Positions 2 through 4,569 of a stretch of DNA of 4,695 nucleotides are shown here, one piece after another. Origin of the DNA: a virus (Duplodnaviria > Heunggongvirae > Uroviricota > Caudoviricetes); the IMG/VR virus record IMGVR_UViG_2541047874_000001; one strand, written 5' to 3'. Both the position numbers and the translations under genes were made by a program. The notes under the pieces were generated by a model. The model was not told the origin of the DNA. It ran no database searches and saw only the letters and a list, made by a program, of their open reading frames with translations. The stretch's first letter is position 1. Each line of letters begins with the position of its first letter.

Positions 2-592
2 GAACGCCGTGATCTGTTGAATAACGTTCTGCGCATTGGTGGTTTTATGACACCAAAAGGGAAGCCTAAAGTGCCGGAAGCACTGTTTAAAAACATCTGC
101 GACTCTCTCGGCCTAAAAACAGGAAAACGTCGCGGCAGAGATGGCGATAAGCGCCCGACATTGCGTTTTGTTGAGCCTGAGTCTGTAGCATTTATGCTTG
201 ATATTCTTGCGCAACGTCAGGAGGACGGTATGACGTTGAAAGCTCGCAAGGCGGAAAAATCAACGACCGAAGTGGATCGCGATTTGTCATTAAATATATA
301 TATGAATGGTGAAACGCGATCCACAAACACGGTGGAACAGGATTCCCCTCGTTCAGCTATATCACAGGCTTTGGCCGTATTGCCGGTGGCTGTTCCTGAG
401 TCCTGGGCGATGAGTGCTCTGCCATCAGCTGAACTGGAATCTATCAGGGGGTGGTCAGTTGACAGCATCGCATACACGTTTGCAGCCCTTTATATGACTG
501 AGTTTATGGATTTGCTGTCCGGTCATGAGATTAAGTTGCTGAAGGCTTTTATAGGCCCACGACATGCCAGCGATGAGTTTTGTGTAGTTTAG
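2..592 (+). CDS. 3' end of a larger ORF truncated by the window edge; probably C-terminus of a RepA-like replication (primase/helicase) protein. A stand-alone 181-aa protein starting at ATG 47 cannot be excluded
   Basis: Frame 2 is open from position 2 with no stop until TAG at 590..592. The listed TTG start at 17 has no SD. ATG at 47 is preceded by a weak GGTGG. I see no recognisable catalytic motif in these 196 residues, so the product call rests on synteny with N15 (repA adjacent to the antirepressor locus, same strand), not on sequence recognition. Confidence 0.45.
   Translation, partial: ERRDLLNNVLRIGGFMTPKGKPKVPEALFKNICDSLGLKTGKRRGRDGDKRPTLRFVEPESVAFMLDILAQRQEDGMTLKARKAEKSTTEVDRDLSLNIYMNGETRSTNTVEQDSPRSAISQALAVLPVAVPESWAMSALPSAELESIRGWSVDSIAYTFAALYMTEFMDLLSGHEIKLLKAFIGPRHASDEFCVV
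273..323. repeat. 9-bp inverted repeat (TGGATCGCG 273..281 / CGCGATCCA 315..323) flanking an AT-rich spacer with an (AT)5 tract at 294..303; each arm carries a GATC site
   Basis: Read directly from the sequence; it lies inside the coding region of the 2..592 ORF. One such 9-bp inverted repeat within 50 bp is roughly expected by chance in 4.7 kb, so significance is modest. Confidence 0.3.
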
Positions 593-1073: not shown

Positions 1074-1135
1074 TACTCCGCTGCGGTAAATCCCGCAGCC
1101 GGGCGTGAGAACCCGAATATCCCAAGCGACGCACA

Positions 1136-1158
1136 ACACGCGCCAGCGTGTTTTTTTT
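1136..1158 (+). terminator. Rho-independent terminator
   Basis: Perfect 6-bp stem ACACGC (1136..1141) / GCGTGT (1146..1151), 4-nt loop GCCA, immediately followed by a run of Ts through 1158. Confidence 0.75.
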
Positions 1159-1190
1159 GTGTGTATATAAGCCTGCGCATATCCGAATTA

Positions 1191-1267
1191 TGGTGGCTCA
1201 GGCGGGGCAGCCGAAAGGCTGGCCGGTATCGTTTGGGCCGGTATTCTCACCCCCGTCTGGGCTACCA
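1191..1267 (+). ncRNA. Candidate structured regulatory RNA of the phage P1 c4 / P4 CI / N15 CA antisense class (about 77 nt)
   Basis: Closing helix 1191..1207 with 1251..1267 (17 pairs: 14 Watson-Crick plus 3 G-U). Inner hairpin CAGCC-GAAA-GGCTG (1208..1221) with a GNRA tetraloop. A second short CCGG-based hairpin (1223..1241). A single-stranded stretch UAUUCUCAC (1242..1250) whose core TTCTCAC (1244..1250) is complementary to GTGAGAA inside both copies of the direct repeat GCGTGAGAAC (1103..1112 and 1278..1287). Exact RNA ends are unknown; an alternative is a short RNA from about 1081 to the terminator at 1158. Confidence 0.4.
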
Positions 1268-1327
1268 CCCCCTTAGAGCGTGAGAACTCTGGTGGTAGCA
1301 CTGTTCTTCCAAACAAGAGTGCATACC

Positions 1328-1492: not shown

Positions 1493-1722
1493 ATCAGGTA
1501 AAAATGAACACTGTTGGCCTGCTGGAATCGTTGGATGAACGTCTGGCTCAGGTCTATGCGCTTGTGTCATCAGCCCATCGTACAGTCTCCAGTTGTGAGG
1601 CGTCGATTTATCTCTCAGAAGCCGGGAAGCTCCTTCAAATCGCGTGTGAGTTGACACACAAAGCACAGGGGTATTCAGCATCTCTCTCGTCGCAATTGCA
1701 GCACAATAAGGAGGCCAAATGA
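1489..1722 (+). CDS. Hypothetical protein (77 aa), middle gene of the antirepressor operon (antA position)
   Basis: ATG at 1489 preceded by GAGGTGG (1478..1484); ATGA overlap with the upstream stop and again with the downstream start at 1719, indicating translational coupling. Confidence 0.6.
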   Translation: MNQVKMNTVGLLESLDERLAQVYALVSSAHRTVSSCEASIYLSEAGKLLQIACELTHKAQGYSASLSSQLQHNKEAK

Positions 1723-2501
1723 GCGCGTTAGCTGTATTTTCGTTTCAGGAAGAGCATCAGGTTCGTGTAGTGATGATTGATAGCGATCCGTGGTTTGTAG
1801 CGGCTGATGTTTGTAATGCCATCGGGATTATCAATCATCGTGATGCTGTTGGTAAGTTGGATGAAGACGAAAAGGGGGTCGGTTCAACAGACACCCTTGG
1901 AGGTAAACAGGGAGTGACAATTATCAACGAATCCGGCCTCTATACCCTAATCCTCCGCTGCCGTGATGCGGTGAAGCAAGGCACAACAGCTTGGCGGTTT
2001 CGCAAATGGGTAACGAACGAAGTCTTGCCCTCTATTCGCAAAAATGGAGAGTACGTTTACATCGAGCCTGAGCCAATGCGAGCAGCAGAGCCGTTGAACT
2101 GGAGGCAGAAAGAGTATCTGCGAGGGCTGATTAACGATATAGCACAAAGTTTTCAGTACCGAAATGCCTGGATTAGCGGTGTATGGTTAGCTTTGCGTCG
2201 GGCGTGTCGTAATCCGTCCCCGAACCCCATAACTGTTGATGATTTGCCAGCAATTACGGCAGAACTGCGCCGGATTTTGACGGCTGCTGAGTCGGCATTG
2301 GGGAACATGCGCACGTATGAACGAGAGTTGTTGCGTGATGTTGTTCGTGGGGGTAGGCGGAGTATGTCGTGTGGTGATTTGCCCATCACCGATATTAACT
2401 CTGATCTGGAAAAGGCGTTACCCGCGCATTTTGAACTGGCAGTTCAAAAACTTGAGCAGTTATCCGCGCAGTTAAAGCCAGCAGAAATCACTAATAAATA
2501 G
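1719..2501 (+). CDS. Bro-N domain protein, phage antirepressor-like (260 aa)
   Basis: ATG at 1719 preceded by AAGGAGG (1708..1714). The N-terminal ~110 aa match the Bro-N pattern as I know it (FSFQ..VRVV..D..PWFVAADVCNAIGI...DAVGKLDEDEKG...INESGLYTLILR...A..F.KWVTNEVLPSIRKNGEYVY). The C-terminal ~130 aa do not look like the usual KilA-C/ANT domain to me. Confidence 0.85.
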   Translation: MSALAVFSFQEEHQVRVVMIDSDPWFVAADVCNAIGIINHRDAVGKLDEDEKGVGSTDTLGGKQGVTIINESGLYTLILRCRDAVKQGTTAWRFRKWVTNEVLPSIRKNGEYVYIEPEPMRAAEPLNWRQKEYLRGLINDIAQSFQYRNAWISGVWLALRRACRNPSPNPITVDDLPAITAELRRILTAAESALGNMRTYERELLRDVVRGGRRSMSCGDLPITDINSDLEKALPAHFELAVQKLEQLSAQLKPAEITNK

Positions 2502-2673: not shown

Positions 2674-4569
2674 TTAGCCGAAATATGTCAGCCATGCTAA
2701 CTGCATTGCTGACATGGGGCTGTTTGCACTGCCTGACCACGCATAATTCTGGCCATTATAATGAAACTCGACAACGTATGAGCCATCACCAATATTTCTC
2801 ACTGGCTTAAATACCGGCTTAGATACAGGCGAAGAAGGTGCAGGCGGTTGCTGTTCTTCTACGCTCTCTTCCTCTTCCTCTTCCTCTATCTCAATTTCGT
2901 CGTCATCCAGATCGTCATCCTCTGATAATTCATCCGCCAGTTCAGGTATTGCTTCCAGTTCTTCTTCGTCAGGCATAACGATTTCTGGAGTATCTATTTT
3001 CAGTTGCCATTGTCCGTTTTCGCCAACAAATTGCCCCAGAGCATCAGCAGCAAATTCCAGGTATCGACTAATCATTGTTGGGCTAAATTTGAACGCTCTT
3101 AGAGTGCTGTTCGTGATTTTTATAGAGGGGTCCTGCTCTACCAGCTGCTTAACTGTGTTATGCAGACGAACCCCGGCATCTCCTCTGGCGAATCCAGGCA
3201 TTTCGTCATCAAGCTGCTGCAATGCTTCCAGCCTGGTATTTTCGTTTCCAGTATTTGGCCTCCATGTCTTTGAGAAGTTGGCCAGCTTGAATTGCTTATA
3301 GTGTAATTGAGTGTTTTCATCGTCATGGCCTAAGATTTCCATAAAGAAAACATCCTCATCTACGTTTTTCCAACGAGGATCTACGCGGAAAAACATTTCA
3401 TACGCAATACGGGCATAAATAGCACGACTATCTTTATAAACACGGCGGTCATCTTTGAAAAATGATTTAACCCACGGGTTAAAAGCCTTTGCTAATATGG
3501 CATTAATACGTCCGTTTTCAGAGCGTGTGTCGTTATCTCCATAACCTTTAACGACATCATCAAAATCAGATGCTGCTGGGCATGAGCGAAGTACATTTAT
3601 TAAATAAACAAATGTTTTTGCTTCGCATAATGTATATATTTTTCTGGTTATATCATCAGAAGTTCTTTTTTTAGCTTGGCCTAAAAAATCAACGGTATAC
3701 TTACCAGAAACAGTAAATGTACCTTGATACATAATCTCAATCATTCGTCTTCCTGACAATGCAGCAAGTGCAAATGCCAAAGGAGCCATACCTGAACGAG
3801 TGTTTAGATTATTTAATGTAGCAGGGCTATTTATAATATCGTAAATAGCTTGCATATATTTAGGGTAATCAATGACCACCACGTTACGTTTCTTATTGTG
3901 CAGAACGTCCGCCCATCGTTGCTGGATAGATGCGCGTTCGGCAGGGCTTAGTTGAAGATGATAGAGAATCTCATGGTTAACTTTTAGCTGATTCAACTCC
4001 TCAAGCAAGGCAGATCCTTGCTGTAGTAATTTATATAAATAATCGCGCTTATCTTTCCAGTTATCGCTAGTTAAATCAGAAATGGCGAATTGCCACTCTT
4101 TATATTTATTTGATAATTTTAATAACTTATTATGACTTTTGTTATCACCAATTCTGATATTAGATAAATCTTCTGATAAAGGGAGAATTAATTTTAATTT
4201 TGCCTGTAAAGCTGACATTCTCTGTCGAATATCGGCAGCAGGTAGAGAAAGCCATGACAATAGCTCCTCATTATATAAAGGATACTTTTCAGATAGGCGA
4301 TGTATATTTTTTTCAAAGCTATGATGAAGTTTATCATCAAACCGTTTTCTGGCCCTGCTCATATAGGCATTGAATGTGTTGGCTGTAATTCTTTTTTCTA
4401 ATCCTTTCCCCCTAAACTTTCGCTTGTCATTAAATAATGCATTTTTAAATTTTAATGCAACAGCCTTTATTTTTTTTGTTTTTTCCCCTTGAGGACGGTC
4501 AGAGTTATCTATTGACTCAACATCGCTAACAAGTGAGTTTATTAATTCACCGATTTTTACTTTGCTCAT
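2674..4569 (-). CDS. telN: Protelomerase (telomere resolvase), TelN/TelK family, 631 aa
   Basis: The whole ORF reads as the TelN/TelK family from memory (MSKVKIGELIN..., NALFNDKRKFRGKGLEKRITANTFNAYMSRARKRFDDKLHHSF, SGRRMIEIM, RINAILAKAFNPWVKSF, KDSRAIYARIAYEMFFRVDPRW, ILGHDDENTQLHYKQFKLANF). 631 aa equals the length I recall for N15 TelN. The tyrosine in LHYKQF is residue 424 (codon TAT, complement of 3298..3300), the reported catalytic position; Arg275 and His415 are also present. SD GGAGAGGA lies 5 nt upstream of the ATG on the - strand. Confidence 0.93.
   Translation of the reverse strand: MSKVKIGELINSLVSDVESIDNSDRPQGEKTKKIKAVALKFKNALFNDKRKFRGKGLEKRITANTFNAYMSRARKRFDDKLHHSFEKNIHRLSEKYPLYNEELLSWLSLPAADIRQRMSALQAKLKLILPLSEDLSNIRIGDNKSHNKLLKLSNKYKEWQFAISDLTSDNWKDKRDYLYKLLQQGSALLEELNQLKVNHEILYHLQLSPAERASIQQRWADVLHNKKRNVVVIDYPKYMQAIYDIINSPATLNNLNTRSGMAPLAFALAALSGRRMIEIMYQGTFTVSGKYTVDFLGQAKKRTSDDITRKIYTLCEAKTFVYLINVLRSCPAASDFDDVVKGYGDNDTRSENGRINAILAKAFNPWVKSFFKDDRRVYKDSRAIYARIAYEMFFRVDPRWKNVDEDVFFMEILGHDDENTQLHYKQFKLANFSKTWRPNTGNENTRLEALQQLDDEMPGFARGDAGVRLHNTVKQLVEQDPSIKITNSTLRAFKFSPTMISRYLEFAADALGQFVGENGQWQLKIDTPEIVMPDEEELEAIPELADELSEDDDLDDDEIEIEEEEEEESVEEQQPPAPSSPVSKPVFKPVRNIGDGSYVVEFHYNGQNYAWSGSANSPMSAMQLAWLTYFG
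2851..2970 (-). other. Poly-acidic low-complexity tract within the protelomerase (residues about 534..573, including EEEEEEE), encoded by CTC/TTC repeats on the + strand
   Basis: Translation DEEELEAIPELADELSEDDDLDDDEIEIEEEEEEESVEE; the + strand reads ctcttcctcttcctcttcctc around 2861..2885. Confidence 0.8.

Follow-up and report, generated by a model that had tools for sequence, protein, structure and literature searches.

The 4,695-nt stretch of DNA analysed here (the window) aligns over its full length with Escherichia phage YDC107_1 (genus Ravinvirus; N15-like telomere phages) at 96.8% identity. It opens in the 3' end of repA and reaches beyond the protelomerase gene telN, with secondary-immunity RNAs lying between repA and a BRO-N open reading frame (ORF), and the centre of the telomere palindrome falls 65 nt past its end (Table 1). 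In the YDC107_1 record (CP025712.1) the genes run in the order cB/cro, repA, small genes, secondary-immunity genes, BRO-family antirepressor and protelomerase. As deposited, that record runs through the hairpin telomere around 36742/36743, at a perfect palindrome whose arms are each 368 nt or longer, with the repA-to-telN region duplicated in inverted orientation and its CDS calls fragmented. Either the assembly of a hairpin-ended molecule produced this read-through as an artefact, or the record represents a head-to-head replicative dimer. TelN is a 631-aa protelomerase with a long acidic tract (…DEEELEAIPELADELSEDDDLDDDEIEIEEEEEEESVEEQQ…) ahead of its C-terminal domain.

Table 1. Features of the window and related sites in the YDC107_1 record (coordinates are those of the window unless CP025712.1 is given)
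Feature	Coordinates	Strand	Remarks
repA 3' end	2..592	+	Last 196 codons and stop codon; primase-helicase replication initiator of an N15-like telomere phage
DNA-level constraint zone	263..325		Proposed origin core, 63 nt
Left arm, GTGGATCGCG	272-281		GATC at 275-278; imperfect extension to 291
AT-rich spacer	282-314		33 nt, 18% GC; (AT)5 at 294-303; proposed DNA-unwinding element
Right arm, CGCGATCCAC	315-324		GATC at 318-321; imperfect extension from 305
isrK Hfq-binding RNA	1080-1156	+	Rfam RF01394, 67 bits, above gathering score; just upstream of C4
C4 antisense RNA	1186-1272	+	Rfam RF01695, 75.2 bits, above gathering score
BRO-N ORF	1719..2501		
telN (protelomerase)	2674..4569	-	Downstream of repA
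sop-like palindrome	CP025712.1 28384-28397		repA codon ~127; homologous to the annotated partitioning site of phiKO2
Further sop-like copies	CP025712.1 18302, 18522, 21562, 25941		

The RepA C-terminus encoded in the window is, by tblastn, 98.5% identical to YDC107_1 RepA, 58.7% to N15 gp37 and 33.5% to PY54 RepA, and the translated 2-589 fragment is 100% identical to RepA of the E. albertii plasmid pEA26_5. The full-length homologue, of 1,327 aa, matches NCBIfam CyRepA1 at residues 525-1034 (255 bits) as well as Pfam Toprim_3 and Herpes_ori_bp, the last of these being the UL9 family, matched by residues 500-674 (E = 4e-7). The C-terminal 196 aa matched no family in Pfam or NCBIfam, and a solved-structure search with full-length RepA returned no match. 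The original prediction had taken the open frame for a probable replication gene; since it is homologous to RepA, the objection that it might be unrelated to RepA-type proteins falls away. At the extreme C-terminus (window 509-592, the last ~28 codons) amino-acid identity between lineages is 0.13-0.30, and the protein ends differently in each (…DEFCVV, …EAFYG, …QAVAI). This divergent tail, just 3' of the proposed origin, suggests a mosaic junction or a dispensable tail. In pEA26_5 (NZ_CP117614.1), a transposase downstream of icd-like genes occupies 6969-8177, at the place of the window's BRO-N ORF, so this plasmid is either not the window's source or a rearranged relative.

Between repA and the BRO-N ORF, positions 1080-1272 are, as judged from their Rfam matches, a secondary-immunity RNA locus of the N15 cA / P1 c4 / P4 cI type, and the stretch shares 82.9% identity with the P4 cI region. 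The isrK-like match ends in a terminator-like hairpin (1135-1152).

Within the repA frame we find an inverted repeat whose right arm, CGCGATCCAC, is the exact reverse complement of its left arm, GTGGATCGCG. The original prediction had described a 9-bp inverted repeat with a GATC in each arm; the repeat and its GATCs are present, but the perfect repeat measures 10 bp (272-281/315-324). When mismatches are allowed the arms reach 20 nt (272-291 / 305-324) with 80% complementarity (16/20). The AT-rich spacer and its (AT)5 tract were found as described, and within the spacer the segment 285-307 falls to 13% GC. The element also lies entirely in coding sequence, as had been stated, inside an open frame that ends in a stop codon. 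The interval to which it had been assigned, 2-592, is the whole of the partial ORF, whereas the element proper spans about 263-325. Shuffling the 591 nt (n = 1000 for each scheme) produced a perfect inverted repeat of 10 bp or more, with a loop no longer than 60 nt, in 2.9% of cases by dinucleotide and 2.6% by synonymous-codon shuffling, so that in this single sequence the repeat is only marginally beyond chance (P about 0.03). It is comparison with relatives, not the single sequence, that places the inverted repeat far beyond chance. Folded as single-stranded DNA, 262-334 reaches -15 kcal/mol (z = -3.8), and none of 200 shuffles folded equally well.

In windows of 15, 20, 30 and 40 bp alike, no duplex in the 3,984-nt repA is less stable than the AT-rich centre of the element (288-303), and GTGGATCGCG is unique in the 46.7-kb phage record, save for the artefactually duplicated copy of repA. 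In the window alone the clustering of GATC (two sites within 50 nt) is not significant (P = 0.6). Most relatives carry three to four GATCs within 47 nt; the element is the densest GATC cluster in each relative's locus, with P of 0.004-0.015 in the four-GATC lineages. Across the whole window GATC is depleted, with 10 sites against 17.8 ± 4.1 expected and at least 10 in 198 of 200 shuffles. The methylase encoded by the phage belongs to the N6_N4_Mtase family and is not Dam-like.

We then compared repA across 47 loci from IMG/VR, one from a scan of genome contigs, phage records (N15, phiKO2, PY54, P840 and MStein) and plasmids. The last 2.1 kb of the gene were aligned by codon in 42 distinct sequences, and synonymous constraint was calculated from pairwise identities among 12 clade representatives over 685 codons in 15-codon windows. 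A single outstanding maximum emerged, in the 15-codon window starting at nt 266, where third-position identity is 0.79 against a mean of 0.48 (z = 4.2) and synonymous-codon identity 0.90 against a mean of 0.55 (z = 4.5). The runner-up windows elsewhere reach 0.67 and 0.68, respectively, and none of 20,000 column permutations matched the peak. Amino-acid identity across the constrained stretch is 0.36-0.65, and the disparity is visible codon by codon: third-position versus amino-acid identity is 1.0 versus 0.56 at V91, 1.0 versus 0.35 at D94, 1.0 versus 0.45 at Y100 and 0.83 versus 0.26 at G103. This per-codon map sets the limits of the constrained zone at 263-325. Rare codons are fixed at the element, namely ATA (10 of 68 Ile codons) and CGA (7 of 104 Arg codons). 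Synonymous identity along full-length repA from six phages is likewise highest at this site, reaching 0.93 where amino-acid identity is 0.41. As a positive control, the scan also picked up the site in repA annotated in phiKO2 as a 'putative plasmid partitioning site'. The pattern argues that the element is selected as DNA and not as protein. The peptide encoded by it may be a disordered linker, judging from its low amino-acid identity and polar composition.

The architecture of the element is conserved as well. The distance between the outer GATCs is exactly 43 nt in 17 enterobacterial variants (16 of them aligned), including PY54, P840 and a Salmonella plasmid, and all 16 aligned variants share GGATC on the left, an ATATA.ATAT centre and GATC on the right. 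An Orbaceae plasmid, with a RepA C-terminus only 29.7% identical, has TGATCC, 40 nt of AT-rich sequence and GGATCA. The arms of Klebsiella-type origins hold two GATCs each (left GTGGATCaCGATTTgGATC, its partner read as complement GTGGATCgCGATTTATGATC). PY54-type origins have GGATCTAACTTGTGGATCT and, as complement, TGATCCAACTTGAGATCT, and the PY54 arm GGATCTAACTTG pairs with CAAGTTGGATC. Across lineages 60% of dyad positions are paired, compared with 31-49% in slid control registers, and the dyad covariation score of 0.124 was reached by none of 500 shuffles. The dyad symmetry is thus kept although the arm sequences diverge between deep lineages. Five of six other lineages have hairpin z-scores between -3.2 and -4.9. 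The exception is N15, and since its dyad is weak (fold z = -1.1, arm score 7) a long hairpin is not a universal requirement.

Aligning the window to N15 repA, as the original prediction had proposed, placed the repeat exactly on three 11-bp repeats annotated in the N15 record U63085.1. These comprise two direct copies (CGAAGTGGATC and CGATTTGGATC) and one inverted copy; they map onto window 267-328 and correspond to AF064539 nt 30145-30191, 283 nt before the stop codon. The two sites share a homologous host gene and a position about 280-295 nt before its stop codon, the left repeat GTGGATCGCG, an AATATA.ATAT core, a GATCC right repeat and the 43-nt outer GATC spacing, as well as a context of cB/cro, repA, secondary immunity locus, telN and telomere. 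They differ in that N15 has the second direct GGATC repeat CGATTTGGATC where the window reads TTGTCATTA, in the match between the arms (about 8 nt in N15, a perfect 10 bp in the window) and in the core, which is ATATAGATATA in N15 and (AT)5 in the window. PY54 likewise has its site, nt 27863-27909, in the homologous gene, 255 nt before the stop codon, with the same outer GATC spacing, an ATATA.ATAT centre and dyad symmetry. Unlike the window, with its two GATCs, PY54 carries four (GGATCT twice, AGATCT and GGATCA) arranged as a nested palindrome; its arm sequences are TAACTTG/CAAGTTG, and its RepA is 33.5% identical in the C-terminal part.

We take the N15 origin to be located in the 3' part of repA. 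The PY54 origin of Ziegelin et al. 2005 is reportedly 212 bp long and situated in the 3' portion of repA, and PY54 RepA is said to act on it in trans. For N15, the origin has been placed within repA (PMC4165912) and replication described as initiating there (PMC2847241), with RepA reported to work only in cis (PMC3155836). The element in the window sits at 93% of the length of repA, where the gene is poorly conserved close to its 3' end, and some 5.0 kb separate it from the hairpin telomere. From the literature placement within repA, the repeat annotation in U63085.1 and the 212-bp origin reported for the 3' portion of PY54 repA, we infer that the palindrome corresponds to the mapped N15/PY54 origin. 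The site shows the features of an N15/PY54-type origin, being contained in the repA of a protelomerase-encoding linear plasmid-prophage, with N15-homologous repeats, inverted repeats around an AT-rich centre and selection that appears to act on DNA. We therefore consider it highly probable that the vegetative/plasmid replication origin of this N15-like linear plasmid-prophage has its core at 263-325. An origin embedded in the ORF, which had been thought plausible, draws support from homology and position, purifying selection on DNA, the conserved dyad architecture with its spacing, a duplex less stable than any other in the gene and a motif that is unique in the genome.

Other classes of origin signal were also sought. 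DnaA boxes (consensus TTATNCACA) form no cluster: at the element there is a single 7/9 match, CGATCCACA (317-325), which is absent from N15 and PY54 at the homologous position, and across the window 7/9 matches are not enriched (21 against 14.8 expected). A DnaA-dependent, oriC-like origin was rejected, the boxes being neither enriched nor conserved. A search of 1-700 for iterons (at least three direct repeats of about 17-22 bp) revealed no direct-repeat family beyond chance, and no arm in the relatives has more than two direct GGATC units of 11-13 nt; an iteron-type origin (lambda O, P1 oriR, F/R6K-like) would call for at least three direct repeats. Cumulative GC skew over the YDC107_1 genome has its minimum at 27148, at the cB/cro divergent promoters, and lends no support for an origin; it is uninformative on this point because it follows gene orientation and transcription. 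Promoter and terminator scans of 1-1400 gave nothing at the element above shuffle expectation, the weak terminator-like match on the minus strand at 280-263 being within chance (three found against 1.5 expected).

The gene harbours further palindromes. The unique part of the YDC107_1 genome contains five copies of the sop-like palindrome GCGACC-NN-GGTCGC where 0.09 would be expected, and at the repA codon ~127 site PY54 carries the F sopC-like TGGGACCACGGTCCCA. A second palindrome in repA, GTGACCAGTCAC, is found at codon ~210. With the sop-like copy and these other sites, repA carries at least three overprinted cis sites. At 1003-1022 the window has a perfect palindrome, CCCCGTGAC-TG-GTCACGGGG. 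The palindrome core GTGAC-NN-GTCAC is present three times in the unique part of the YDC107_1 genome (0.02 expected), one copy being that at repA codon ~210; it is a dispersed site family separate from the origin motif and possibly related to partition or to a regulator.

Constraint at the DNA level carries by itself no information on which protein binds, and the element, a conserved palindrome containing GATC, might instead be the site of another protein: a SopB partition site, a CB/Cro operator, a TelN site or a Dam/SeqA-controlled regulatory site in repA. N15 does have a centromere site within repA (PMC2847241). The partition sites in repA lie elsewhere, however, that annotated in phiKO2 being about 380 nt from the repA start, and their motif (TGCGACC-NN-GGTCGCA, in PY54 TGGGACCACGGTCCCA) is dispersed in five copies over the YDC107_1 genome, where GTGGATCGCG is unique. 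Because motif and copy number differ, we reject the partition-site reading, and a SopB/sopC-type site, with consensus (T)G(G/C)GACC-NN-GGTC(C/G)C(A) in several dispersed copies, is excluded for the element. The palindromes upstream of repA are unrelated to it in sequence, and an extremely AT-rich centre of least stability would be expected in an unwinding element rather than an operator. Taken together, a site for a protein other than the initiator appears unlikely.

A hairpin in the repA mRNA, acting on translation, processing or transcript stability, would also yield synonymous constraint; the plus-strand hairpin is stable in most lineages (z -3.8 to -4.9), and some paired positions are G-T, acceptable as G-U in RNA. 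Yet invariance is greatest in the GATCs and in the AT-only centre, the latter forming what would be loop rather than stem, and N15, whose hairpin is no better than shuffles, retains the GATCs, the spacing and the AT core. We consider such an mRNA element very improbable because the GATCs and would-be loop are the most invariant part and N15 keeps the site without a good hairpin. Recognition of duplex DNA is suggested by the clustered Dam sites and by a spacing of exactly 43 nt, and the independent literature places a DNA origin in repA (PMC2847241, PMC4165912). The original prediction had itself offered a plainer alternative, that the repeat is a coincidence in ordinary coding sequence and the AT tract simply encodes NIYMNGE (N-I-Y-M-N over the tract). 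A perfect 10-bp repeat in about 3% of 591-nt shuffles and the unexceptional pair of GATCs (P = 0.6) would accord with this. The reading is rejected because third codon positions are invariant where amino acids vary. The fixed rare codons, a unique conservation peak that none of the 20,000 permutations equalled and an architecture kept down to 30-33% amino-acid identity also speak against it, leaving chance hardly credible as an explanation.

For the origin at 263-325, which we thus prefer, we postulate the following course of events. RepA, a primase-helicase fusion, would bind the two inverted (G/T)TGGATC-containing arms, and the AT-rich centre (285-307) would melt between them; the opening may be stabilised by hairpins into which the dyad arms fold once the strands have separated. 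RepA would then load its helicase both ways and prime synthesis, and bidirectional replication would proceed to the telomeres, which TelN would resolve. With a GATC in each arm the element is a substrate for host Dam methylation, and hemimethylation together with SeqA could limit re-initiation there.

The proposed layout can be compared with those of better-known origins. The lambda ori lies inside the initiator gene O, in a weakly constrained protein segment, with initiator-binding repeats beside an AT-rich unwinding region; its four 19-bp iterons precede a separate AT-rich region, and host DnaB is loaded through P. The element in the window is similarly overprinted on a weakly constrained, polar segment of its own initiator. 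The lambda analogy has also been drawn by others (PMC7157519). Unlike lambda ori, the element consists of a single dyad around an AT tract, and RepA, which is not homologous to its lambda counterpart, brings primase and helicase domains of its own. Herpes simplex virus oriS has two inverted boxes for the origin-binding helicase UL9 around a short, pure A+T spacer, and its separated strands can form a hairpin. Here the analogy is one of layout only: the boxes have unrelated sequences, the host is a bacterium, and the match of RepA to Herpes_ori_bp is confined to the helicase core and includes no origin-binding domain. With the E. coli oriC 13-mers and P1 oriR the element shares GATCs in or beside an AT-rich unwinding region. 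It is unlike Dam-dependent origins in that the window lineage has two GATCs and its DnaA boxes are not enriched.

The sub-lineage to which the window belongs (the window, YDC107_1, E. albertii pEA26_5, E. coli pS142-3 and an E. fergusonii plasmid) is set apart by having two GATCs instead of three or four, the perfect 10-bp outer repeat and the (AT)5 core. Both inner GATCs have been lost from it, and the 16/20 complementarity of the arms has been kept. One tentative and rather doubtful explanation is that the origin was remodelled here, losing the inner GATC repeats that Klebsiella-type and PY54-type origins possess while the arms changed together and the dyad was preserved (left ...TTGTCATT, right-arm complement ...TTCACCATT). 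If so, RepA may need a minimal outer (G/T)TGGATC dyad, an extrudable hairpin and the AT core, not a four-site array, and this sub-lineage would have lost, or be able to dispense with, Dam/SeqA control through closely spaced GATCs.

The origin described here is of the known N15/PY54 kind, already mapped in related phages, and the window provides a further example with a lineage-specific simplification. Neither the origin assignment nor the cis sites in repA overturn current understanding. What is gained is that the origin of this prophage-plasmid lineage can probably be assigned to a 63-nt element, and that a synonymous-constraint scan finds three cis-acting sites on repA, one a putative origin and two partition-like palindromes. 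Within the origin family, GGATC, the 43-nt spacing to the second GATC and the ATATA.ATAT core emerge as invariant features, and the inner GATC repeats and long arm complementarity as dispensable ones. Linear cloning vectors (pJAZZ) are built on N15-type replicons, which are also frequent in clinical Klebsiella and Escherichia; the element should therefore be useful for annotation, for the design of minimal linear vectors and for predictions of incompatibility.
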